Source: Candidatus Thorarchaeota archaeon
GTDB taxonomy: Archaea > Asgardarchaeota > Thorarchaeia > Thorarchaeales > Thorarchaeaceae
Assembly (NCBI GenBank): GCA_048884785.1
Contig: JBHLQM010000027.1
Coordinates: forward strand, 16,229 to 35,674
Length of the DNA stretch: 19,446 nt
Reading direction: 5' to 3'
The position numbers were made by a program, and so were the translations under genes. Below, piece after piece: positions 1,790 through 13,917 of the stretch (positions within the stretch are counted from its first letter, which is position 1; every line of letters starts with the position of its first letter). The notes beneath the pieces were generated by a model, which was not told where the DNA came from, did not search any database, and was given only the letters and a program-made list of their open reading frames with translations.

Positions 1790-2515
1790 ATGAAACTGGC
1801 AAAGAAGATATTTGGAATGGCACGCTCCGAGGGAAGGTCCTTTGTCCTTGAGAATGAAGCAAAGGACATCATGAGAGAATACGGTCTGAATATTCCAGCA
1901 TATGCCACCGCAGCTACTCCTGAGGATGCTGTGAGAGAGTCTGCCAAGATTGGCTATCCTGTTGTGCTGAAAATTCTCTCAAAGGATATCCTCCATAAGT
2001 CAGATGCGGGAGGAGTCAAGCTAAATCTAAAGAACGATGCTGAAGTGAAAAAGGCATTCAGTGAGATTATGCAGAATGCAAAGAAATACGGCGAAGAGCA
2101 TGGTGTTGCAGTTGATTTGAGCCGAGGTGTCTTCATTACTGAGTTCGCAGAAATGGGAACGGAGGTCATTGTCGGGGTAACCAAGGACCCACAATTTGGA
2201 CATGCCATTATGTTTGGTCTGGGAGGCATATTTGTTGAAGTGCTGAAAGATGTCACCTTCAGATTAATACCTCTGACGGAAAATGATGCACGTGAAATGG
2301 TGAGCGAGATCAAGGCCGCAAAGATCTTGGACGGAGTAAGGGGACAGGGGCCACGAGATATTGACGCACTTGTCGACGTAATACTTGGTGTTTCGAAAAT
2401 GGTTTCTGAGAATCCAGAGATAATTGAACTTGACTGTAATCCAACCTTTGTCTATGAACGTGGAAAGGGTGCAGTGGTTGTGGATGCTAGGATCCTGATT
2501 GATACTAGCCATTAA
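1790..2515 (+). CDS. acdB: Acetate/acyl-CoA ligase (ADP-forming), beta subunit (ATP-grasp)
   Basis: GYPVVLKI, ILHKSDAGGV (second catalytic His), DPQFGHAIMFGLGGIFVEVLKDV, ELDCNP, VDARI. Lies directly after acdA. Confidence 0.94.
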   Translation: MKLAKKIFGMARSEGRSFVLENEAKDIMREYGLNIPAYATAATPEDAVRESAKIGYPVVLKILSKDILHKSDAGGVKLNLKNDAEVKKAFSEIMQNAKKYGEEHGVAVDLSRGVFITEFAEMGTEVIVGVTKDPQFGHAIMFGLGGIFVEVLKDVTFRLIPLTENDAREMVSEIKAAKILDGVRGQGPRDIDALVDVILGVSKMVSENPEIIELDCNPTFVYERGKGAVVVDARILIDTSH

Positions 2516-3698
2516 CTAGATGGTCTACAAGAACAAGACCTCTCATGATATCAGAATCATTGAGTTGACCTGGAGTTATTTTTGTGCCAGCGGAAATCAA
2601 TAGAAGCAACGAAATGACTCTGGGTACCAAACGTGAATTCTGAAGCAAAAACTCCCTGTTTCCAGCCGCATCAATAACATATCCCTCAATCCTTCGAGTG
2701 AGGAGAGAAATATGCTCGTTTAGACCCTCAGAAGGCTTCAACTGTTTGAAGAGGCGTACTACGGATTCCTCGTTGTTGAAACTATCGGGAGAGAAACCAA
2801 CACTCTCGAGTTGCTTTATTGAATCCAACGTGAACATTTCATAGTCTTCCTCTTCTATACGTTTCTTCTCTTTTCCTACACTTTGAAGCTGTGCCAGCAA
2901 GCGAAGGGAATTTGTCAAAATAGAGCGAGATGCGGCTGGACTAGAGGGAGTTAGTTGCGTTAGAAAAGAACCATGTTGTTCTTCAAGATGTGCTGCCATT
3001 GAAGAGCTAATTTGACGTTCAAATCCAGGAGAGAACGCAACGACCGCGGCATTGAGCAATTTTGAACTGGCACCAATGCGACGGCTTGCAACAAGTGCTC
3101 TGAAGTCTTCAATTGAAATGTAAAATAATAGGATTCTGATTACATCATATGCTCTCTCGAAATCCGCCTCATTGGTTGAAGACCGGCCTTCATTCCTGCA
3201 AATCAGGGCACTGAGTAATTTCCATGCTGATGATAGAGAATCACATAGTTCATTTCTAAGCCTCGATTCTGCTACTCCTTGCTCATCCAGAAACCGCTTT
3301 AGTTTCTCTTCGGCCGCATTGACTCTGTTCAGAGTTGATATATCAAGTGTGATATCAGTGACTGATTTCATGAATTCTCTCGGTTCACGTATTCTTGGTC
3401 GAAGAACTAGTGCAGGTTCTTTTCTATCGATAATCCACCATTTTGTTGTGGAAGATACCTGATCAAGCATGTCAATCGCAATCGTCAGATCGGCTCTTCC
3501 AACCACAAAACGTGAGTCAAGATAAGCAACAAGACGAGAGATGAGACCTATAAAGTGAGAGAGATGAATGGAAAGACTCTTACTTTCGAAGGCATAGCTT
3601 GAAAATCGTCCTACAAACTGACGGACTTCTTCCTGAATATCATCACCAAGACGTGTCTGAGTAAGCGCACGATAGACGTCAATTGGTGTTCTCGCCAT
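2505..3698 (-). CDS. Hypothetical all-helical protein with four apparent AAA-lid/histone-fold-like repeats
   Basis: 397-aa ORF with ATG start and a TTATATAA element upstream (3773-3780). Its 3' end overlaps acdB convergently. No Walker motifs seen. The repeat call is by eye. Confidence 0.75.
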   Translation of the reverse strand: MARTPIDVYRALTQTRLGDDIQEEVRQFVGRFSSYAFESKSLSIHLSHFIGLISRLVAYLDSRFVVGRADLTIAIDMLDQVSSTTKWWIIDRKEPALVLRPRIREPREFMKSVTDITLDISTLNRVNAAEEKLKRFLDEQGVAESRLRNELCDSLSSAWKLLSALICRNEGRSSTNEADFERAYDVIRILLFYISIEDFRALVASRRIGASSKLLNAAVVAFSPGFERQISSSMAAHLEEQHGSFLTQLTPSSPAASRSILTNSLRLLAQLQSVGKEKKRIEEEDYEMFTLDSIKQLESVGFSPDSFNNEESVVRLFKQLKPSEGLNEHISLLTRRIEGYVIDAAGNREFLLQNSRLVPRVISLLLLISAGTKITPGQLNDSDIMRGLVLVDHLVNG

Positions 3699-3808: not shown

Positions 3809-4576
3809 CTATTTCCCAAAACGGCGAGATCTCTTCTGGTATGACCGTAAAGCGCGCCAAATATCAATTCGACGCACAGCTGGCCAATATACTTGCTCAA
3901 AATATAGTTCCGAGTAAGCAGATTGCCAGAGCAAGAATCCCGATAGCCTCTCCTCACCAGATGTACGTATGATTAAGTCTGGATCTGGAATGTCCTTTGT
4001 ATAGAGATGGTCTTCTATTAGATCCTCGTTAATGCCATCAGGCTGAAGAATACCATCCTGAATCTTGTGACTAATTGCCTTCACTGCATCAACAAGCTCA
4101 GTTCTGCCAGAGTAGCCAACTGCAATATTAAGAGAATAATCACTGTATTCTTTGGTCTCCTCTTCAGCAGCATGAATTGCCTCTTGGAGCTTCTCAGGCA
4201 AAATGTCGATCCGTCCTATGGCCTGTATGCGTACCTTGTGTTTTCGTACATCGGGATTGCCAATCACTTCAGCGAACTTGCTTTCCAGAATGCCCATGAT
4301 CTCCTCGACTTCTTCACGTGAGCGTTGAAAATTCTCAATAGAGAATGCATAGAGAGTGCATACCTTGACGCCAGCCTCCCAGAGAATCCGGAGGACCTCC
4401 ATTACCTTCTGGGCTCCGGCCCGATGGCCATACCAAGGTATTTCCAAGCCCTGTATTCTGGCGTATCGTCTGTTGCCATCAAGTATCAATCCTATATGTC
4501 GAGGGTTCTTACTCTCATCAAGCTGTCTATGCAACCACCACTCATAGAGTCGATATACAGGACCTGCAATATTCAA
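3809..4576 (-). CDS. uppS: cis-prenyltransferase (polyprenyl diphosphate synthase, UppS family)
   Basis: PRHIGLILDGNRRYA, GH..G, TLYAFSIENFQRS..EV, AVGYSGR.E, PDPDLIIRTSGEERLSGFLLWQSAYSELYF, C-terminal RRFG. TTG start. Confidence 0.97.
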   Translation of the reverse strand: MNIAGPVYRLYEWWLHRQLDESKNPRHIGLILDGNRRYARIQGLEIPWYGHRAGAQKVMEVLRILWEAGVKVCTLYAFSIENFQRSREEVEEIMGILESKFAEVIGNPDVRKHKVRIQAIGRIDILPEKLQEAIHAAEEETKEYSDYSLNIAVGYSGRTELVDAVKAISHKIQDGILQPDGINEDLIEDHLYTKDIPDPDLIIRTSGEERLSGFLLWQSAYSELYFEQVYWPAVRRIDIWRALRSYQKRSRRFGK

Positions 4577-4638: not shown

Positions 4639-5010
4639 TCAAATCATCTCTGCTATCTTATCAGCCGCTCGTTTCATGTCAAGGAAGACCAGGCCCAGCT
4701 TGGCTTGGTCAGTTGTAGATACCGTGAGGCAAGCGTTTAGTCCTGCCTGAATTGCAAGTAGCCATCCATTGTCACCCTTGATAATCACCTGTTCCAGCGC
4801 ACCTTTCCCAAGCTCAATTGCCGCCTTTTCTCCTAGGGTGAGCATTGCTGCAGTCATTGCTGCGACCTTCGCCTCGTCAACTTCATTGGGGAGGGCAGAT
4901 ACAATCGGAAGTCCTTCTACGCTAACTATCGCACATGCCTCTATCTCAGGGATGCTGCCTTGGAGCTCATTGAGAACTCCTTCCAGTGTATCACCGCGTG
5001 TCTGACTCAT
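4639..5010 (-). CDS. Roadblock/LC7 domain protein (MglB-like, likely GAP partner of the adjacent GTPase)
   Basis: Roadblock pattern IEACAIVSVEGLPIVSAL...VAAMTAAMLTLGEKAAIELGKGALEQVIIKGDNG...AKLGLVFLDMKR. ORF track starts at 5022; ATG at 5010 after GGTGAGG is preferred. Closely follows the GTPase stop at 5027. Confidence 0.92.
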   Translation of the reverse strand: MSQTRGDTLEGVLNELQGSIPEIEACAIVSVEGLPIVSALPNEVDEAKVAAMTAAMLTLGEKAAIELGKGALEQVIIKGDNGWLLAIQAGLNACLTVSTTDQAKLGLVFLDMKRAADKIAEMI

Positions 5011-5026
5011 TGACCTCACCATAGGT

Positions 5027-5590
5027 TCATTTGTACATACGTTTAAGGATTACCTCTCTGGCTATTGCTTGGAATGCTCTTTTAACTCCAACCCCTTGCA
5101 CTGCGATGGTCTCGTAGATTGGGACATTACTGCCAAGACCAAGGAGATCAAGCATCTCGTCTCTAGACATTCGATTTGGCAGGTCTCGTTTGTTTAGCAT
5201 GACCACTATTGGTATATTGCGACCAAGTTCATCTCCGAGGAACAACTTCAGTTCCTCAAAACTCTCCGTGTTCTCCTCCCGTTGGTCCGGTGATGAGTCG
5301 GCTACAAAGAGCAAGCCGTCTGTGCCTTGAAGCACTACTTTTCTCTGGTGGCGGTGTCGCTTCTGACCGGCTACTGTGAACACATCGAATAGAACACGAC
5401 CGCCCGCGCTCATCGGTACATAGTCAAAGAACAGTGTTCGATTCGTTTCATCTTCGATAGCTGTGAACTCACCTTTCTGGAGGCCTTCTACTTTTCCATA
5501 GAGCCATCTCAGAGCAGTGGTTTTACCACCGAGGGATGGCCCATAGAAGACCAGCTTAAGATGAATGCGTCCTTTGTCATCCTTACGCAC
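5027..5590 (-). CDS. mglA: MglA-family small Ras-like GTPase
   Basis: G1 GPSLGGKTT; switch I ETNRTLFFDYVP (MglA signature RTLFFDF with the intrinsic Arg); G3 TVAGQ (MglA TVPGQ instead of DxxG); GTDGLLFVADS; G4 NKRD; G5 TIAVQGVGV. GTG start after GAGGTG. Confidence 0.92.
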   Translation of the reverse strand: MRKDDKGRIHLKLVFYGPSLGGKTTALRWLYGKVEGLQKGEFTAIEDETNRTLFFDYVPMSAGGRVLFDVFTVAGQKRHRHQRKVVLQGTDGLLFVADSSPDQREENTESFEELKLFLGDELGRNIPIVVMLNKRDLPNRMSRDEMLDLLGLGSNVPIYETIAVQGVGVKRAFQAIAREVILKRMYK

Positions 5591-5610
5591 GATTATAGCA
5601 CCTCATTGAG

Positions 5611-5704
5611 TCACAGCTGACCCCGGTCGTAGTTGGCATGGCGAAGACCGACGACCTGCGTGGGTCTCAGGCCCTGCATCGGGAGGTTGAGTGTGTTAAA
5701 AAGC
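5611..5704 (-). promoter_or_regulatory. Putative internal promoter (TTTTTAAC) and GC-rich structured 5' leader of the GTPase gene
   Basis: TATA-like element at about 5695-5704 on the minus strand. 5611-5690 is 64% GC (51/80, hand count), with paired segments GGTCGT 5625-5630/ACGACC 5651-5656 and GACCC 5619-5623/GGGTC 5662-5666. Confidence 0.4.
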
Positions 5705-5763
5705 TAGTCTCATAAAAGCATTGCTTGAGCATACACAGGGATAGTAGCGGGTCTTTTATGGGA

Positions 5764-6225
5764 TTAGACACGCTCGAGCTCTGCGAGGGCTGACTTCAGG
5801 TCTTCCTCATCAAGCTCATCCTTGCCTGGAGATGGTTCGACTGCCAGGAACTTATCGAGCTCTTCAGCAAGCTGTACACCCTGCTTCCTCATCACAAGAC
5901 GGATCATACCGATATTGACCTCTGCTTCAGATACAACACAGAGGACGCCCTTTCCACATGCAGACGCGAATATCTTGCCCTCTGAGAACTCTGAAGTCAC
6001 TATCTCAAGCTCGCCGATCTGAAGGTTCTTACCCTGTTCTTCGCTGGCGCAGAATACAGCACTCGCGATTGCCCCGATACTATCAGTGTCTACGGCATAG
6101 TAGGACAGCTTTGACACGTTTGCAATTGTGAGGCCTGTCTTATCGACAAGAATCACTTTCTTGATTCCCTTGTCCTGCCTAATGATATCAGTCAGTATTC
6201 GATCAAATGCTTTTGGATCACTCAT
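5764..6225 (-). CDS. Roadblock/LC7 domain protein with acidic C-terminal helix extension (MglB-like)
   Basis: IKKVILVDKTGLTIA...IGAIASAVFCASEEQGKNLQIGELEIVTSEFSEGKIF...NIGMIRLVMRK, then a linker and ELDEEDLKSALAELERV. GGAG SD site upstream of ATG. Confidence 0.9.
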   Translation of the reverse strand: MSDPKAFDRILTDIIRQDKGIKKVILVDKTGLTIANVSKLSYYAVDTDSIGAIASAVFCASEEQGKNLQIGELEIVTSEFSEGKIFASACGKGVLCVVSEAEVNIGMIRLVMRKQGVQLAEELDKFLAVEPSPGKDELDEEDLKSALAELERV

Positions 6226-6237
6226 GATAGTATCTCC

Positions 6238-6537
6238 TTATTCATTGTTCTTTAGGACCACTAGGATAAGTCCTTCCTTTGGTTCCGGGGCGATATTAAT
6301 CTGCCCACGACTGGTGTCGAGGGTCAGAAACGACAGCGTCCCCTCCTTTAGTTCGCGAACGGCATCCATTGCCTTGCCAACCAAGGAGGTTATGATAGCA
6401 GCGACGATTTCTGTAGTTTCGGGGTCAATATCGCTACTGAGGGGTAGTCCTTCCATTGTGGTAACGACTACTCCGCGGACACCTTCTTGTGCCCTCAGTC
6501 GCTTAAGAATTGCTTGAAGTTTTTCTTGACTTATCAA
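6238..6537 (-). CDS. Short Roadblock/LC7 protein resembling dynein light chain roadblock type (no C-terminal alpha3 helix)
   Basis: [32 protein letters not shown]...KAMDAVRE...LSFL...INIAP...LVVLKN. The ORF track's first 36 aa (from 6645) look non-coding. TTG at 6537 after GCGGGGA gives 99 aa. Confidence 0.9.
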
Positions 6538-6679
6538 ACTTGGGAATCCCCGCTGCTGTCTTGTGCAATTCGCAAATCTTACCACTCTGGAGAGTATTTT
6601 AGAGTTGTGGAGATGTGCTACGCGCAGATAGGTGATTTTGCGCATTTTGTTATAATCTTGTATTCTCCGTGTATGTATG

Positions 6680-6723
6680 AAAAAAGGATTGGATAGCGCA
6701 ATAATCGACCTTACGCGCTATCC
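6680..6723 (-). terminator. Hairpin plus oligo-T terminator downstream of the Sec23/24-like gene
   Basis: Perfect 9-bp inverted repeat GGATAGCGC (6691-6699)/GCGCTATCC (6715-6723), followed on the minus strand by AATCC-TTTTTT, starting 10 nt after the stop codon. Confidence 0.7.
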
Positions 6724-6733
6724 TGAGCGAAGA

Positions 6734-8368
6734 TTACTCTTCTTCTTCTTCTTCAAACATCTGTTTGGAACTCTTCCGCATCTGGGCAAGACCTTTGGTA
6801 AACGCCTCATCTGCTGCTGCAGAGGGAGCGCCTGATGGGGCCTCCTCCATCATCTGATCGAGCTGCTCCATCTCATTCTCTTCAGCCCTTAGTGCGTCTT
6901 CCACCATTTCGTATTTTGCCTGTGCAGGTTTTGGCGCTGCTTTGGCATATTCTTTCATTGCGGACCTAAAGGCAGCAATGCGCTTCCTGCCCTTCTTTCT
7001 ACCCTCAGCTCCTTCAGCAAATGACTCCTCACCAGCTTTCTGTGTAACAAAGGTTGCTCCAAGCGTTGGGTCTAGGGTATCCATGACCTCCTCCTCCTTC
7101 TTGGCAACCTTGAGCGTGGCGGTGACCGCACGGATTCTTCGAGCACCCTCCTCGTCTGTGTATGTAACTTGAACCTGAATGGGTACCTCATCTTCTTTGA
7201 TTTCCTTCTCAGGTTCAACTTCAAAGTAGAGCTCATGGTTCTCTCCGACCACTCCGATTTTGCTCTCCTTCCTCTTGGTCAGCTCTTCTATGACGGTGCG
7301 GGATACGCCCGATGCATCTTTTACCTTGACTCCCTTAGGAGTCACAAGCCTTACTTCCACATCGCGTCCAAGCAGACTTGCGCCAGCAAGTTCTGAGATA
7401 CTCTTGTCCAGTTCATTGGGCGTGACATAGTACATCTGGCCTCCTGTAGCCTCTGGTAGTAGACCCAAGGTCTTCAGTTCCATACCAGCACCTGATGCGA
7501 TTCCAACAACATCGACCGAAGTTCCGAATTCGAGAAACTTGCGGCCCATCTCTTCATAGAAGGCTCCTGCAGGAGTGACCTGATATCCCTCAAGAGCCCC
7601 AATTCCTTCGTTAGCAAGTCCATCAGTCAAGAGGACTACTCGTCCTACATTGCGGTGCTTAGCAACAACTGACGCCATTGCGACTGCAGGACCCAGAGCT
7701 GTGCCACCTTGATCTCGTAGAGAAGCGACGTGACTCTTGAGTCTATCAGCATTCTTGCCAACATGTACGAGTTTGATTTTGTCTAGCAATTTCTTTGTAG
7801 CATTGACAATGTTATCATAGCTTGGAAATGACTCATGTGGGAGCTGTATTTCATTCCCCGTTTCCAAATCTCTATAGAGCACGCTGCTCTCAAACTCGAC
7901 CAGCCCAAACTGTGTATCGGGTGCATTTGCAGCCAAGCTCTCAATAGATGTAGTTAGACTTCGCTTGACAGCGGATAGATTTGCTCCAGCCATTGAACCT
8001 GATACGTCTATGAGCGCTAGGAATGACCTTCCACCCGTGGAGATGGTCCCAGTTTCAGTTTCAGTTTTGACAGGAGGAGGCTTGATTAGAAAGTCCCCAT
8101 CGTCTCCAGCAAGAACGACTTCTCCTCCTATAATGTTCAAGGTTCCACAGAACGCACAGTGGAAAAATTTTCCAACTTTATTGTTTTCTTCCACTTGCTC
8201 TACACTCATCAGAAAGCCGCCACATTTCTGGCATGCAATAGGCTTTCCTATAATCTTCGTTACATCCTTTGCGAGGTCTCCAAAACCAATTCGCAGGACA
8301 TACGGAATATCGCTCATCAGCTTCTTTGATGCTGGAAAAGCCTCTGAGCTCGTTCTTAACATAGGCAT
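6734..8368 (-). CDS. Sec23/Sec24-like protein (Zn finger + vWA trunk + beta-sandwich + short helical region)
   Basis: Zn finger PIACQKCGGFL...FHCAFCGTLN; vWA with DVSGS, GGTALGPA, RVVLLTDG, FYEEMG...SVDV, TGGQMYY; beta-sandwich VEVRLVTPKGVKV...G, LYFEV, IQVQVTYTDEEGARRIRAVT (Sec23/24 consensus as recalled: Q...Y....G.RRIRV.T). ATG at 8368 follows GGAGGT; ORF track start is 8398. Confidence 0.85.
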   Translation of the reverse strand: MPMLRTSSEAFPASKKLMSDIPYVLRIGFGDLAKDVTKIIGKPIACQKCGGFLMSVEQVEENNKVGKFFHCAFCGTLNIIGGEVVLAGDDGDFLIKPPPVKTETETGTISTGGRSFLALIDVSGSMAGANLSAVKRSLTTSIESLAANAPDTQFGLVEFESSVLYRDLETGNEIQLPHESFPSYDNIVNATKKLLDKIKLVHVGKNADRLKSHVASLRDQGGTALGPAVAMASVVAKHRNVGRVVLLTDGLANEGIGALEGYQVTPAGAFYEEMGRKFLEFGTSVDVVGIASGAGMELKTLGLLPEATGGQMYYVTPNELDKSISELAGASLLGRDVEVRLVTPKGVKVKDASGVSRTVIEELTKRKESKIGVVGENHELYFEVEPEKEIKEDEVPIQVQVTYTDEEGARRIRAVTATLKVAKKEEEVMDTLDPTLGATFVTQKAGEESFAEGAEGRKKGRKRIAAFRSAMKEYAKAAPKPAQAKYEMVEDALRAEENEMEQLDQMMEEAPSGAPSAAADEAFTKGLAQMRKSSKQMFEEEEEE

Positions 8369-8505
8369 GCAATTATACCTCCAAAAACTTGCGGCCACTC
8401 ATGCATGAAAGGTATTAAGTAGTTCGACGATGAAACTCGGGAACGAACAACATTTAAACAGGAGGGCGTTTAGAGGAAAAGCAGTACTCCCTAAGGTGAT
8501 AATAG

Positions 8506-8871
8506 ATGGTTGACCAGACAAAAATCAAGGGTATTGTCAGTGACACAATGGCTGCAAACGCAGACATTGAAGGAATAATTGTATGTGATTCGAAAGGGCA
8601 GGTAATATTCGGTCACACACTATCTGATGGTATCAAGCATGACGATGTTGCCAAGCTTGTTGTCAAAATCTCGGCGAATTCGTCCTCGCTCACTTCTGGC
8701 ATCGACAAGGGAGGACTCAAGGAGGTCAGCATTGCTGCTGATGACGGATTTATCGTTATCCTCGGGGATGTTAAAATGGTGCTTGCGGGAATTGCGGGCG
8801 AGGGTTCCCGGGAACAGATGGGATTAATTCGCATGGCACTAAGGCGTGCGCTCCTCTCCATGATTAGCTAG
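8506..8871 (+). CDS. Roadblock/LC7 domain protein (fourth, divergently transcribed)
   Basis: IEGIIVCDSKGQVI...IDKGGLKEVSIAADDGFIVI...QMGLIRMALRR. SD AAGGTGA and a TATA-like TTTAAA at about 8453-8458; T-run after the stop (8897-8902). Confidence 0.82.
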   Translation: MVDQTKIKGIVSDTMAANADIEGIIVCDSKGQVIFGHTLSDGIKHDDVAKLVVKISANSSSLTSGIDKGGLKEVSIAADDGFIVILGDVKMVLAGIAGEGSREQMGLIRMALRRALLSMIS

Positions 8872-9058
8872 ACAAAAATATGCTTCAGCATTATCCTTTT
8901 TTACTCTTCAGAGGTTATTCCAGACTGTCTGAGGGTATACCTGGATATGATGTGGGTATTACCACAGTCATACCAACGGTATTTAGCACCGTGTATCCCC
9001 TCGGTATAATAGACGCGTCATGTGCTTTAAGGCATAAGTGAATCGGAAGGGATGCATC

Positions 9059-12000
9059 TTGGTCCATATTCAGAAGCTTGTATGCAAGGGCTTCAAGTCA
9101 TTTGGTCGAGATAGTGTCATAATTAGGATGAATCCTGGATTCACTTGTATTGTTGGACCCAATGGATCTGGAAAATCGAATGTAATTGATGCAATCCTTT
9201 TCGTCCTAGGACAGTTAAGTGCCAAGACCCTGAGGGCAAATGTATTCTCGGATCTTCTCTATTCGCCTCCGAAACCTGATATGCCTCCAAAGGCAAAGAA
9301 TGCGACTGTAGAGATTCATTTTGACAACAAGGATAGAAAGTTGCAGGTTGATGCAGACAAGGTAGTTGTCGAGAGAGAGCTTGATGATAATGGAAAATCG
9401 ACCTGTCGTGTCAATGGAAAGGTTGTTACTCGGACTGCCGTCCTAGATTTACTTGGGGGAATAGGAGTAGACCCTAATGGCTACAATCTGGTTCTTCAGG
9501 GCGAGATTGCACAGATGGTCAAAGTCAGCCCTATTGACAGACGAAAGCTCATTGAAGAGATAGCTGGAATATCTGCCTACGATGAACAAAAGGAACGTGC
9601 TCTCAAGAAGCTTGCAGAGAGCGAGAGCAATCTTGGCAAAGTAGAGACCCAGCTTATGGAGAGAAGAAGACAACTCGAAAAACTTGAGTTGGAGAGAGAG
9701 GATGCTCTTAGATACACACAGGCAAAGAGTGAGATTCAGAGAATAAAAGTAGACAGCGTTGCATGGTCTATTGTGAAAGGTCGAAGTAGGATTGTGGCCA
9801 TAAACGATACCCTCGCGGAGCGTGCTGCAGAGGCGGAAAGTCTGGTCAGAGAACTTGAAGAAATAGAAAAGAAACATGAAGAGATTGAAGCCGAGATTGA
9901 GAACATTGATGCTGAGATTGATCAGATAACCGGCGGGGACTCTGCCAGGATTTCTGAGGAATTTGGTATCGCATCAGCTGCGGTGAACCATGTTGATTCC
10001 AATCTCACTAGGGTCAAGGGTGAGTATGAGAAGATCATCCAACAGAAAAAAGACATTGAAGAACAGATATCGCTCGTTGGAAATCAGATCACAAGTGCCA
10101 AACAGAAGATTGAGGAAAAGGAAATTGAACTCTCTCAACTCGATAAGGAAATAGAAGAGTGTCAGAAAGATATAGCAAGACTTGAGGAGAGTTTTCAGAA
10201 GGAGCAATCAAATTACTATGAAACTGCACAGCGTCTGCAAGACCTGAACAATCAGATGCGCGCATTAGATGAGGGAGTATCTGAGGTCAGGTCTGCAATC
10301 AAATCCGATAACAAGGAATTAGGATTGGCATATGAGGACATTCAAGATGCTGAAAGCAGTCTCGCAAAAACCCAGGAAGAACTGGTAGAACTCGAGAGTT
10401 CCCTTCCGGAAAAAACGGGTTCACTAAAACAACAGGAGCAACTAGAGCAGTCCAAGGTACTAGAACTCGAAGAGATGGAAAGACGCCAAGAGAGAGTGGA
10501 TATAGAAGCAAGCGAAGCAGCAAGAATTGTCAGCGAAACAAGAGAAGAGCTGATTAGATTACAGGCCCGACGTGATGCCCTTAAAGATGCAGAAGAGGCA
10601 TTCCTGAAACGCCAAAAGGCCTTGTCAAGAGTTCTGGAACTTCGAGATTCAGGGGAGATTGAGGGAATTTACGGGACTGTTGCTGAACTGGGCAAAATTG
10701 ACCCTGAGTATTCAGTAGCAATGGAAGTCGCAGGGGGAAATAGGCTCTCTCATATTGTTGTAGACGATGAAGAAGTTGCTACTCAATGCATAAACATTCT
10801 CAAGAAAGAACGTGTGGGTCGTGCCTCATTCATTCCTCTCAATAAAATTAAGGCAAAAAGTCCAGGAAAACTTCCCTCAGATAGAAGGGTGCTTGGATTT
10901 GCGATAGACCTTGTTGAATTTGAGCCTAAGTTCAAACCGGCCTTTGAATTCGTCTTTCAGGATACTGTGATTACTGAGGATTTTGAAACGGCCAAACAAG
11001 TGGGATTCAGTCGATACCGAGCTGTTTCTCTTGAGGGCGATTTGGTTGAAAAATCAGGCCTTGTTACTGGAGGCCACTTTCAGCAGAGAGGTCCTGGTCT
11101 ATCTCTGCAGCTAGAAGATAATAGTGCAGAGATTGCGAACCGGCTGAAGGGCTTGGAGGAGATACTTGCTGATGTCCGAGAACAGCAGGAAGAAATACGT
11201 CAAAGAAGAAGAACCCTAGAGAAGGAAATCGAAAAACTGTCAAAGGAGAACTATAGAGGGCAGCTCGAAACAAAGCAGCTAGATGATCGTTTTCAAGAAA
11301 GAAAACTTAGGACTAGTGTACTTGCCGAAAAGATAACGACAACAAAGCAAACAATCGAAGCATTGGAGAGTCAAGTAAACGACCTAAGAGAGAGAGATGC
11401 CGAGCTCAGTGAGCATCGTGAAACCGTCAGGGCGTTACGAGATGAGGCAAATGAAGCGCTGGTAAAATCAGATGCAAACAAGATCAATCAAGATATCAAG
11501 GATTTGAAAGAGGTTCTTGAACATCATAGACGGGAACGAGAGGACTTAGTCAGCACGCTAACTGGTCTACAGGTTGCTCTTGATGAGAGGTTAGCGCCTA
11601 AGGACAAGGAACTACAGGATAGTCTTAGTAAACTCCTCGCAATTCTGCCTGGACAGAGTGAGGAGCTTGCCGAATTAGAGAGCGACTTCAGTGCGAAACA
11701 GGAAGAACTGGATAGGCTCAGATCTGAGAGAGCAAGAGTAGAAGATGCAGTCAAAGATAAACGAGTAAAACAGATGCAGCTTAAAGAGGACCTCCGAAAT
11801 GCTCGCTTCCGTCACGAGGAAATTCGAGAGTCTCAGACAAGCAATGAGAAGTCGGTGTACAGACTTCAGACTGAGCAATCTCGACTAGAGACGGATTTGG
11901 TTGCATTTACTGCAGAACTTGAGAATATGGCTGATGTTGAAAAAGAGATTGAAGACCGAGCTAGAAGAGAAGAGATAACATATCGCCAGATTGAGGAATT

Positions 12001-12649
12001 TGAGGAGAAGATAAAGGAACTAGAACGTGAACAGGAAGCTATTGGTGCAGTCAATTTGAAGTCACTTGACGATTATGATGTTGAGAAGGGCAGATATGAA
12101 GAGATTGTTGAGAAAAAGACCAAATTGGAGCAGGAGCACAAGGAGATAATTGCCTTTATGGAGGAGCTTGAAGCAGAGAAGACTCGCAAATTCCTTTTGG
12201 TCTACAACGAGATTGCCGATAATTTCTCCAAGGTGTTTGCTAAATTGTCACCCGAAGGAGAAGCAACCCTAATGCTAGAAAATCCAGAACACCCCTTGAT
12301 GGGAGGAATCACCGTCAGGTCTAAACCAAGGGGTAAAGAGCTTGTAACACTCGATGCAATGAGTGGTGGAGAAAAGACACTTACTGGCCTTGCTCTTATT
12401 TTTGCGATTCAGATGTACAACCCAGCTAGCTTCTACGTGTTTGATGAAATTGATGCGGCTCTGGATGATGTGAATGCTCATAATGTTGCGATGTTGATTT
12501 CTGAGATGGCCAAGTCATCTCAGTTCATTGTTGTTTCTCTCAGGGATACTACAGTCAGACAGGCAGACCTGCTCATTGGTATCTCAAATCAAGATGGTAT
12601 CTCAAAGATTGTCTCAGTAGATCTCGAGGAGGTTGAACAGGCAGCATGA
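9059..12649 (+). CDS. smc: Chromosome segregation ATPase SMC
   Basis: GFKSFG, Walker A GPNGSGKSN, Q-loop VLQG, long coiled coils, hinge (GIYGTVAEL, GRASFIPLNKI, G.VTGG), VNL.SLDDY, signature MSGGEK, Walker B/D-loop FDEIDAALD. TTG at 9059 preferred over GTG at 9038. Confidence 0.98.
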   Translation: MVHIQKLVCKGFKSFGRDSVIIRMNPGFTCIVGPNGSGKSNVIDAILFVLGQLSAKTLRANVFSDLLYSPPKPDMPPKAKNATVEIHFDNKDRKLQVDADKVVVERELDDNGKSTCRVNGKVVTRTAVLDLLGGIGVDPNGYNLVLQGEIAQMVKVSPIDRRKLIEEIAGISAYDEQKERALKKLAESESNLGKVETQLMERRRQLEKLELEREDALRYTQAKSEIQRIKVDSVAWSIVKGRSRIVAINDTLAERAAEAESLVRELEEIEKKHEEIEAEIENIDAEIDQITGGDSARISEEFGIASAAVNHVDSNLTRVKGEYEKIIQQKKDIEEQISLVGNQITSAKQKIEEKEIELSQLDKEIEECQKDIARLEESFQKEQSNYYETAQRLQDLNNQMRALDEGVSEVRSAIKSDNKELGLAYEDIQDAESSLAKTQEELVELESSLPEKTGSLKQQEQLEQSKVLELEEMERRQERVDIEASEAARIVSETREELIRLQARRDALKDAEEAFLKRQKALSRVLELRDSGEIEGIYGTVAELGKIDPEYSVAMEVAGGNRLSHIVVDDEEVATQCINILKKERVGRASFIPLNKIKAKSPGKLPSDRRVLGFAIDLVEFEPKFKPAFEFVFQDTVITEDFETAKQVGFSRYRAVSLEGDLVEKSGLVTGGHFQQRGPGLSLQLEDNSAEIANRLKGLEEILADVREQQEEIRQRRRTLEKEIEKLSKENYRGQLETKQLDDRFQERKLRTSVLAEKITTTKQTIEALESQVNDLRERDAELSEHRETVRALRDEANEALVKSDANKINQDIKDLKEVLEHHRREREDLVSTLTGLQVALDERLAPKDKELQDSLSKLLAILPGQSEELAELESDFSAKQEELDRLRSERARVEDAVKDKRVKQMQLKEDLRNARFRHEEIRESQTSNEKSVYRLQTEQSRLETDLVAFTAELENMADVEKEIEDRARREEITYRQIEEFEEKIKELEREQEAIGAVNLKSLDDYDVEKGRYEEIVEKKTKLEQEHKEIIAFMEELEAEKTRKFLLVYNEIADNFSKVFAKLSPEGEATLMLENPEHPLMGGITVRSKPRGKELVTLDAMSGGEKTLTGLALIFAIQMYNPASFYVFDEIDAALDDVNAHNVAMLISEMAKSSQFIVVSLRDTTVRQADLLIGISNQDGISKIVSVDLEEVEQAA

Positions 12650-13362
12650 GCGAAGATGAGGGGTTTCCATTTTGGGCAACACCACCCTATATCTTGCTGA
12701 CCGATGTTCTTCAACTAGACAAGATTGAGCCTTGGAACGTGGATGTTGGAAAGCTAGTAGTTTCGTTTCTCAGAGAGATGAAACGTTTGGGGGATATTGA
12801 CTTCAGAGTATCTGGAAATGCACTCTATTCTGCATCCGTGATTTTCATGAGGAAGACTAGAGAACTGGTTGAGCTGGGAATTCTTCCTCCTGAAGTTGAT
12901 GAGGACGATGACGATTTTGAGATTCCAATGATTCATCCTCCGTTTCGACTCACTAACCGTAGAGTTACTCTTCAAGAACTTCTAGTGGCTATGGATCGTG
13001 TTTTGACCAAGGGTGTTCGTAGTCGTGCTAGTCCAACCAAGCAAAAGATGAGAACACGGGCTGATCCCCTCACATTCAAAATGGAGATAGATAGAGTTAA
13101 TGTCGAGGAAAACATAGCAGATGTCTTGGCAGACTTGCACAGGTTGATGAAAATTGGAGAGATTGTGAGATTCGTAGATATCTTGATGAATCACACTCGA
13201 AGAGAGATTGTACGAGTCTTCTTTGCACTATTGCACCTCTATGCTAGAGCCTATGTTGACATTTGGGAGGATGATAGGGGCGTTATTCAGGTACAGCTCC
13301 TCGAACCTCCTGAAGAAGAGGACTTTGATATTGAGATGTCGCAGTCCCAACTGGAGTTGTAG
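12646..13362 (+). CDS. scpA: Kleisin, segregation/condensation protein A
   Basis: ATGA overlap with smc; EPWNVDV, DFRVSGNAL.SAS...K, RRVTLQELL, and C-terminal winged helix FFALLHL. Confidence 0.93.
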   Translation: MSEDEGFPFWATPPYILLTDVLQLDKIEPWNVDVGKLVVSFLREMKRLGDIDFRVSGNALYSASVIFMRKTRELVELGILPPEVDEDDDDFEIPMIHPPFRLTNRRVTLQELLVAMDRVLTKGVRSRASPTKQKMRTRADPLTFKMEIDRVNVEENIADVLADLHRLMKIGEIVRFVDILMNHTRREIVRVFFALLHLYARAYVDIWEDDRGVIQVQLLEPPEEEDFDIEMSQSQLEL

Positions 13363-13365
13363 ATA

Positions 13366-13917
13366 GTGAGCGAAGATCTCTTGACTCTTGAAGCTGCTCT
13401 TTACGCAGCAGGAAGACCGCTAACACTTCAAGAGCTTGCAGAGCTAATCGCAAAGGCAGAGTCTACGACCAAGAAACTCCTTGAGGATTTGGGGTTTCAA
13501 TACAATAAGAGAGAAGGTGCCCTAGAAATAATCTCTCTCCCGCGTGAGCGATACGTAATGCAGCTGAAACCAGAGTTGACTCCACGGGTTGGTAAGTTGA
13601 TACCTGGGGGCCTACTGTCTTTTGCAACACTTCAGACTTTGGTGTATATCGCATTAAAACAGCCAGTTGTTCAATCTGAGCTAGTGAACCAGAGAGGCAC
13701 ACACTGTTATGACCATGTTCGGGAGCTTGTAGAAAAGAAGTTTATTGACGCCACACCAGAGGGAAGAAGCAAAGTACTCAAGACCACACCACTTTTTGCT
13801 GACTATTTTGGCTTGGATCAAGACAAAATCAAATTGAAAGCTCAGCTCAAATTCAAACTAAAACGGATACTCAGCGAACAAAGCGAGCTGGAAGATAGAA
13901 ATGCAGAACTCCTCTGA
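13366..13917 (+). CDS. scpB: SMC-Scp complex subunit ScpB (kite, tandem winged helix)
   Basis: LEAALYAAGRPLT, LS.ATLQTL.YIALKQPV, RG...YDHV.EL, GR...L.TT..FADYFGL. GTG start 3 nt after the scpA stop. Confidence 0.95.
   Translation: MSEDLLTLEAALYAAGRPLTLQELAELIAKAESTTKKLLEDLGFQYNKREGALEIISLPRERYVMQLKPELTPRVGKLIPGGLLSFATLQTLVYIALKQPVVQSELVNQRGTHCYDHVRELVEKKFIDATPEGRSKVLKTTPLFADYFGLDQDKIKLKAQLKFKLKRILSEQSELEDRNAELL

Follow-up and report, generated by a model that had tools for sequence, protein, structure and literature searches.

The stretch analysed here (the window) comprises 19,446 nucleotides of a Candidatus Thorarchaeota archaeon of the family Thorarchaeaceae (assembly GCA_048884785.1, 3.6 Mb; contig JBHLQM010000027.1, positions 16,229 to 35,674). 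Between positions 4639 and 8871, it carries four roadblock genes, termed RB_A to RB_D, the gene for an MglA-type small GTPase, and the gene for a Sec23/24-like protein, termed Sec23L (Table 1). Five of them occupy the minus strand in the order RB_D, mglA, RB_C, RB_B, and Sec23L; RB_A diverges from them on the plus strand. The locus is flanked by UppS and, at its other end, by SMC-ScpA-ScpB. Gene calls and Pfam searches bear out the original prediction that the six genes are contiguous, with no unrelated gene between them, and that five are co-oriented while the fourth roadblock gene diverges from Sec23L. The same prediction had combined all six into one module, in which a roadblock hetero-oligomer regulates the GTPase and the Sec23/24-like protein serves as its effector or adaptor.

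Table 1. Genes and sequence signals of the MglA/roadblock/Sec23L locus (positions within the window; SD, Shine–Dalgarno sequence; aa, amino acids).
Feature	Position	Strand	Remarks
RB_D, roadblock	4639..5022	-	127 aa; 123 aa from second Met; 4 bp downstream of mglA
MglA-type small GTPase	5027..5590	-	187 aa; P-loop GPSLGGKT, switch-I Arg51, G3 TVAGQ, NKRD
RB_C/mglA spacer	5591..5763	-	173 bp; SD GAGGTG (5604-5599), TATA-like TTTTTAA (5702-5696)
RB_C, MglB-like roadblock	5764..6225	-	153 aa; acidic C-terminal extension
RB_B, short LC7/DYNLRB-like roadblock	6238..6537	-	99 aa; probable start TTG 6537, SD GGGGA upstream; RB_C 12 bp on
Conserved RB_B upstream element	6595..6645	-	ATGCGCAAAA at 6645-6636; TATA-like TCTAAAATA at 6603-6595
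Terminator-like hairpin and T6	6680..6723	-	hairpin 6723-6691, T6 6685-6680; directly 3' of Sec23L stop codon
Sec23L	6734..8368	-	544 aa; zinc finger, VWA trunk with full MIDAS, beta-sandwich, helical tail
Sec23L/RB_A divergent spacer	8369..8505		SD GGAGGT (8382-8377), TATA-like TTTAAAT (8458-8452), both on the Sec23L side
RB_A, divergent fourth roadblock	8506..8871	+	121 aa; same direction as downstream SMC-ScpA-ScpB

All four roadblock proteins belong to the Pfam family Robl_LC7 (RB_B 59 bits, RB_D 57 bits, RB_C 41 bits, and RB_A 22.8–23.0 bits, at the cut-off of 23) and are mutually less than 26% identical, in keeping with the four distinct roadblocks originally proposed. RB_A matches the solved roadblock protein 9jq8 (E 3e-9) and, in profile–profile comparison, all three other roadblocks, among them RB_D with an hhalign probability of 78%. 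RB_B matches a solved 94-residue roadblock-domain protein (7f8f, E 8e-27), which probably corresponds to the short Asgard roadblock in PMC10933270, and dynein DYNLRB (2e-13). For RB_C, which is 85–94% identical across Thorarchaeota genera and also scores 31 bits against MAPKK1_Int, the top solved match is MglB (E 1e-5), followed by LAMTOR2. RB_D matches the solved roadblock-domain protein 7f8m (E 3e-23), and its orthologues follow mglA in most Asgard families sampled. As the locus holds four of the 11 roadblock loci that score above the cut-off in the genome, this clustering is not due to chance.

The GTPase is ranked by Pfam as Arf (55 bits) ahead of Ras (33 bits). Among solved structures, MglA of Myxococcus and Thermus is matched with E 1e-38 over residues 8–182, compared to 2e-13 for the best Arf. 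The alignment with MglA is gap-free from G1 to G2, pairs R51 (ETNRTLFFD) with the corresponding arginine of MglA (ETDRTLFFD), and places TVAGQ opposite TVPGQ. The protein thereby displays the hallmarks of MglA, namely the switch-I arginine (Arg53 in MglA), threonine instead of aspartate in G3, and the catalytic glutamine, and the proposed assignment as an MglA-type GTPase is upheld by both the match to solved MglA and these defining residues. In 26 Asgard MglA orthologues, T72 is invariant and R51 and Q76 are nearly so, and the NKRD motif is conserved as well; across Thorarchaeaceae genomes, MglA identity amounts to 93–98%. The same genome, which has roughly 35 small GTPases, contains a second MglA-like gene, 52% identical, inside a 358-residue frame at G000:C41:24584-25123. 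This paralogue is found in frames of 270–320 residues in other Thorarchaeota genomes and, given these long frames, would carry an N-terminal extension.

The closest known counterpart of the GTPase/roadblock part of the locus is MglA/MglB of Myxococcus xanthus and Thermus thermophilus. Both systems share the switch-I arginine, the threonine-for-aspartate exchange in G3, the catalytic glutamine, and adjacent roadblock genes, and RB_C, with its C-terminal extension, is the most MglB-like of the four. In contrast to the single homodimeric MglB, four roadblock paralogues are present here; the archaeal cluster lacks partners of the Frz/RomR type, and its conserved neighbours are UppS and, in some lineages, SMC-ScpAB. 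The MglA/MglB polarity switch has accessory roadblock-type partners such as RomY. MglA–MglB pairs in Thorarchaeota have been mentioned in passing, and AlphaFold3 models of Thorarchaeota MglA with a roadblock dimer are available (PMC13408092). For MK-D1, small GTPase genes have been described as generally lying outside operons with roadblock genes (PMC10933270).

The parallel to Ragulator that was drawn in the original prediction proved to be numerical only. Ragulator (LAMTOR1-5) and the Rag GTPases likewise combine several distinct roadblock-fold subunits, short LC7-type ones included, with small GTPases. However, the GTPase of the locus is a single-domain protein of 187 residues that scores 16 bits against Gtr1_RagA, below the cut-off of 22, whereas the Rag heterodimer carries roadblock domains of its own. 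Moreover, the Thorarchaeota cluster contains no gene for a LAMTOR1-like scaffold. Membership in a Ragulator-type system was rejected on these two grounds.

The age of the cluster was assessed in a survey of 200 Asgard genomes from 27 families (f1, Thorarchaeaceae). MglA orthologues occur in 25 of the 27 families. The complete five-gene cluster of MglA and four roadblocks is present, without Sec23L, in families f4, f8, f15, f16, and f19, and partial forms occur in f5, f7, f13, f22, and f26. In f2 and f12, the order RB_A<>RB_B-RB_C-MglA-RB_D is intact, the spacer between RB_A and RB_B contains no gene, and Sec23L is located elsewhere. RB_A orthologues of 27–33% identity occupy the same divergent position in f4, f8, f12, f15, f16, and f19. 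Judged from sequence and gene order, the roadblock/MglA cluster is a real and ancient module, so that this part of the one-module claim stands, its order recurring in many Asgard families. By analogy, it would most likely work like MglA/MglB with heteromeric roadblock platforms. Roadblock dimers would serve as a platform that triggers the catalysis by MglA's own arginine and glutamine, in the role of GTPase-activating protein (GAP), and perhaps also promote nucleotide exchange. The gene spacing hints that RB_B and RB_C might form one pair and MglA and RB_D another.

Sec23L, which most likely starts at ATG 8368 rather than at GTG 8398, matches Sec23_trunk (42 bits) and Sec23_BS (35 bits) in Pfam, both above cut-off. 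Its AlphaFold model (mean predicted local distance difference test score, 80) retrieves Sec24 and Sec23 chains in Foldseek with E 1e-28 and template modelling scores of 0.62–0.71; sequence and fold thus agree with the Sec23/24-like identity initially assigned. C56, C59, C81, and C84, which align with the Sec24 zinc finger, are invariant in 25 Asgard homologues, as are D131, S133, S135, T233, and D259, which form the complete metal ion-dependent adhesion site (MIDAS; DxSxS, T, D) of the von Willebrand factor A (VWA) trunk. Domain order and fold are shared with COPII Sec23/Sec24 from the zinc finger through the beta-sandwich to the first helices. In yeast Sec24, by contrast, only DxSxS of the MIDAS is kept in the alignment. 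Further, the locus has no Sar1, Sec13, or Sec31 context, and Sec23L is a single copy instead of a Sec23/Sec24 pair: the assembly yields only one Sec23_trunk match, and its relatives have one copy per genome. Three Thorarchaeota genomes give Sec23L matches with one in-frame stop, TAG or TGA (G004, at L006/L066; G011, at L008; G008, at L014), which may reflect a sequencing error, a pseudogene, or alignment past the true stop.

The gelsolin-like domain of Sec23 bears the arginine finger that acts as GAP for Sar1. In Sec23L, Pfam detects no gelsolin domain, the model contains only helices past residue 444, and the chain stops after this helical tail at residue 544. Consequently, Sec23L has no arginine finger of the Sec23 type. 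Gelsolin is likewise missing from the Asgard Sec23-like proteins of PMC11914678, three of which bound one Asgard Arf weakly and independently of nucleotide; that study contained no neighbourhood analysis. In a complex prediction of Sec23L (residues 11-549, 25-row alignment) with the MglA of the locus (26-row alignment), the score was 0.00 against a mark of 0.32, a value that was not weighed in either direction.

The fold search also returned proteins outside the Sec23/Sec24 family, although far more weakly, namely ArnB (8s05, E 7e-14) and the bacterial VWA protein 4fx5 (E 2e-17). ArnA/ArnB of Sulfolobus share with Sec23L the layout of VWA, beta-sandwich, and helical region together with a zinc-finger partner, an architecture that is widespread in prokaryotes (PMC12852372). 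Sec23L might hence be a regulator of this type that has nothing to do with small GTPases, binds a perhaps phosphorylated partner via its complete and invariant MIDAS, and sits at this locus by a neutral accident preserved by slow rearrangement. The weak, nucleotide-independent Arf binding cited above would fit such a protein. However, the ArnB likeness is much weaker than that to Sec24 or to the CPRas proteins introduced below, Sec24/Sec23 being far better matched in both fold and sequence. In addition, the zinc finger of ArnAB resides together with an FHA domain on a separate protein, with regulation by phosphorylation, whereas that of Sec23L is part of the same chain.

A possible link to small GTPases emerged when a profile of the 25 Asgard Sec23L homologues was searched against 1.84 billion representative proteins. 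About 40 Asgard-type proteins came first, followed by a large eukaryotic set at 205–254 bits, identified by Pfam and source names as CPRas of sea urchin, starfish, and Willaertia. By profile score, CPRas proteins are the closest non-Asgard relatives of Sec23L (Sec24A, 73 bits; Sec23, 31–34 bits). The CPRas (cpRAS-zinc finger-VWA) family was described by Elias and Novotny 2008 (PMC2430557); its members carry, besides a circularly permuted Ras domain, a Sec23/24 zinc finger together with a trunk/VWA domain and a beta-sandwich. In BLASTP, Sec23L is 24% identical to sea-urchin CPRas1-like over 499 residues (E 6e-38), covering finger, MIDAS, and beta-sandwich. The four-cysteine finger, the VWA trunk with full MIDAS, the beta-sandwich, and the start of the helical region are common to both. 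In contrast to CPRas, Sec23L has no fused GTPase, as Pfam detects no GTPase domain in its 544 residues, and the GTPase next to it in Thorarchaeota is of the MglA type and not Ras-like. Since its chain lacks a GTPase domain, Sec23L resembles the cpRAS-less relatives that are also among the eukaryotic profile matches, e.g. in Entamoeba. A single-sequence search had found no longer fused relatives; the CPRas fusions were retrieved by the later profile search. Because of this sequence link to CPRas, the label "ancestor of Sec23" is too simple for Sec23L.

Small GTPases and roadblocks also adjoin Sec23L homologues in a Loki-like clade, sampled as genome G052 and 31 metagenome contigs. Here, the homologue has an Arf/Ras-like GTPase 125 bp upstream, a Ras-family GTPase 60 bp upstream, or Ras GTPases upstream together with a roadblock gene 63 bp downstream. 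On other contigs, the same Ras-family GTPase is one gene farther away, separated by a redoxin gene with an in-frame TGA. The neighbouring GTPases are orthologous neither to one another nor to MglA, and the cpRAS domain is 33–35% identical to the Loki neighbour, in two permuted pieces, versus 25% to MglA. Immediate GTPase or roadblock neighbours were present in about four of 15 distinct contexts compared to roughly 0.6 expected; with contexts set post hoc, this is a rough count, and the excess is suggestive. On several of these contigs (L186:1860-5656, L175, L187, L195, L178), an Rce1-like CAAX/CPBP protease, the Ras-family GTPase, the redoxin, and the Sec23-like gene are co-oriented. The TGA of the redoxin falls within a W-U-x-x-C motif, making it a probable selenoprotein, and a CAAX-type protease beside a Ras-like GTPase is notable for an archaeon.

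Outside Thorarchaeota, no conserved Sec23L neighbours are common to different lineages. They include OPT transporter, acyl-CoA dehydrogenase, ProRS, NAD kinase, and Nre genes, and are housekeeping genes in the Hermod, Heimdall, and Freya/Jord groups. A Ras GTPase about 4 kb from Sec23L in a Heimdall group was counted as lineage synteny and not as adjacency. Such housekeeping surroundings are what an ArnB-type regulator at a neutral site would show; on the other hand, the CPRas fusion and the repeated GTPase/roadblock neighbours in two distant Asgard lineages would be hard to obtain by chance alone, and we consider this explanation improbable. For the Sec23L family as a whole, the odds that it works with some small GTPase are somewhat better than even.

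The linkage of Sec23L to the cluster is confined to Thorarchaeaceae. There, it is present in about 35 genomes, and a block of acetyl-CoA synthetase, a gene of 397 codons, UppS, RB_D, MglA, RB_C, RB_B, Sec23L, RB_A, SMC, and ScpAB is conserved over at least 16 genera. Within this family, Sec23L is 50–80% identical. Across the survey, Sec23L occurs in eight of the 27 families, of which f2, f12, f16, f19, and f27 encode both gene sets, but apart from each other. Synteny had been set beforehand as the first of two tests of the six-gene module, and on this point the outcome went against it. On one complete Freyarchaeota chromosome, Sec23L and MglA are about 850 kb apart. Even within Thorarchaeota the association is not strict. 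G009 and G017, both 96–98% complete, kept the cluster and lost Sec23L, of which remnants of 30 and 39 residues are left, and G010 has no copy in the cluster and a divergent one elsewhere, which shares only 41% identity with the copy that a congener has in its cluster. In insert-free genomes, RB_A and RB_B are divergent and about 240 bp apart (L062). A quick tree, the deep branches of which are weakly supported, groups all Thorarchaeota Sec23L copies as a single clade with the f2 copy as its sister. Thus, the simplest history is that Sec23L moved into the RB_A/RB_B spacer once, at the root of Thorarchaeaceae.

The inserted gene also appears to bring its own transcription and translation signals. 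Sec23L is preceded by an SD sequence before ATG 8368 and a TATA-like box, and its stop codon is followed by a hairpin of -17.9 kcal/mol (z -3.8), which was equalled in 0 of 200 shuffles. A hairpin of differing sequence is found at the same site in most Thorarchaeota loci examined, with a T-run of at least five in six of them. Between the hairpin and RB_B, ATGCGCAAAA and TCTAAAATA recur upstream of RB_B in Thorarchaeota genomes, including three in which Sec23L is absent from this site (L060, L061, L062); these motifs are therefore older than the insertion or independent of it. As they are conserved also without Sec23L, RB_B has probably retained a promoter of its own, and its most likely start is TTG 6537 (99 residues) rather than ATG 6645. 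A 135-residue frame for RB_B was dropped, because the promoter-like, conserved motifs lie in its upstream part, to which distant orthologues cannot be aligned, their alignment beginning only at residue 26–41. Read as a plain open reading frame, ATGCGCAAAA and TCTAAAATA would fall within a 36-residue N-terminal extension of RB_B. ATGCGCAAAA includes the palindrome TGCGCA, a candidate regulator site. A separate promoter for mglA-RB_D is probable in the 173-bp spacer. From the SD, TATA-like, hairpin, and upstream-motif signals, the locus is predicted to be transcribed as three or four units: RB_A (perhaps with SMC), Sec23L, RB_B-RB_C, and MglA-RB_D. In other Thorarchaeota genomes (L033, L037, L044, L079, L087), the RB_C/mglA junction contains inserted segments of 1 to about 4 kb, and insertions of about 0.8 kb occur at the mglA/RB_D junction in L036 and L037.

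Taken together, we read the locus as two side-by-side units of different age (probability roughly 0.55). The first, as conservation and homology show, is an ancient, Asgard-wide switch of one MglA-type GTPase and four long-diverged roadblock paralogues. The second is Sec23L, which probably entered the divergent RB_A/RB_B spacer a single time, in the common ancestor of Thorarchaeaceae, and would form a transcription unit of its own. Since its linkage is restricted to Thorarchaeota, the gene sets are unlinked elsewhere, two Thorarchaeota genomes lost it, and it has signals of its own, Sec23L is not an obligate part of the switch. It would most likely act as a metal-dependent adaptor working with some small GTPase, for which MglA is a candidate in Thorarchaeota. 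Three points weigh against this division. The place of Sec23L between RB_A and RB_B has been held over at least 16 genera despite divergence to about 50% identity; the chance of a single random insertion inside the five-gene cluster is roughly 0.2%; and the separate transcription units are themselves predicted from sequence. The first two are tempered by the flanking housekeeping genes UppS, SMC, ScpAB, and acetyl-CoA synthetase, which are just as syntenic.

These observations also bear on the reading of the six genes as one working module, in which a hetero-oligomer of roadblocks controls the nucleotide bound to MglA, and the GTP form of MglA recruits Sec23L as effector or adaptor, be it a proto-coat or a membrane adaptor. 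In about 35 Thorarchaeota genomes Sec23L is flanked directly on either side by a roadblock gene of the MglA cluster, eukaryotic CPRas proteins combine its family with a Ras-like GTPase in one chain (PMC2430557), and other small GTPases or roadblocks adjoin it in three sub-lineages of the Loki-like clade, as reflected in the rough, post hoc neighbour count. Yet the linkage has a single origin, both gene sets lie apart in at least five other families, and two Thorarchaeota genomes dropped Sec23L while retaining the cluster. The terminator-like hairpin and start signals of Sec23L, the absence of the gelsolin domain with the arginine that serves Sec23 as Sar1 GAP, and the Ras/Rab-like rather than MglA-like nature of the GTPases fused or adjacent elsewhere likewise speak against it. 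The single module thus remains a tentative alternative: its roadblock/MglA part holds, and the membership of Sec23L, linked in Thorarchaeota only, is weak. That Sec23L is a working partner of MglA in Thorarchaeota is accordingly doubtful. A more speculative scenario, which we consider unlikely, would connect the two lineages: Asgard zinc-finger/VWA Sec23-like proteins would be effectors or adaptors of small GTPases, the Loki Ras-Sec23L pair an unfused forerunner of CPRas, and the Thorarchaeota adaptor rewired to the MglA/four-roadblock switch, giving a GTPase-controlled MIDAS recruitment module near the root of the Sec23/24 coat lineage.

Several features of the surroundings were recorded alongside. 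RB_A lies 166 bp upstream of the co-oriented SMC-ScpA-ScpB genes (8506-13917), and the order RB_A-SMC-ScpAB recurs in f2, f12, and one Freyarchaeota chromosome (L063, L064, L155); RB_A may belong to the condensin operon and not to the MglA unit. UppS (cis-prenyltransferase; 3809-4576) follows RB_D in many Asgard families (L144, L148, L150, L152, L157), and this adjacency is therefore as old as the cluster. A functional tie between the two, e.g. via lipid-carrier synthesis or membrane work, is conceivable. The 397-residue protein encoded at 2505-3698 on the minus strand matches no Pfam family at E 0.01; its gene is syntenic between the UppS and acetyl-CoA synthetase genes across Thorarchaeota genera, at just 38–53% identity. 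NCBIfam comparison gave no useful names.

In the literature searched, we came across no account of the four-roadblock cluster, the Thorarchaeota linkage, or the CPRas relationship, and no paper with both cpRAS and Asgard. GTPase control of Asgard coat-like proteins is a question in eukaryogenesis. The sole published test that we found examined Asgard Sec23-like proteins together with an Arf-like GTPase and detected no nucleotide dependence (PMC11914678). Genome context names other candidate partners: in Thorarchaeota, MglA with its four roadblocks, and in the Loki-like clade, a Ras/Rab-like GTPase. The adjacency of Sec23L hence indicates a candidate GTPase partner and is not a demonstration of a proto-coat machine. 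The MglA/four-roadblock cluster itself is among the few cases in which gene order alone allows the probable regulators of an Asgard small GTPase to be assigned.

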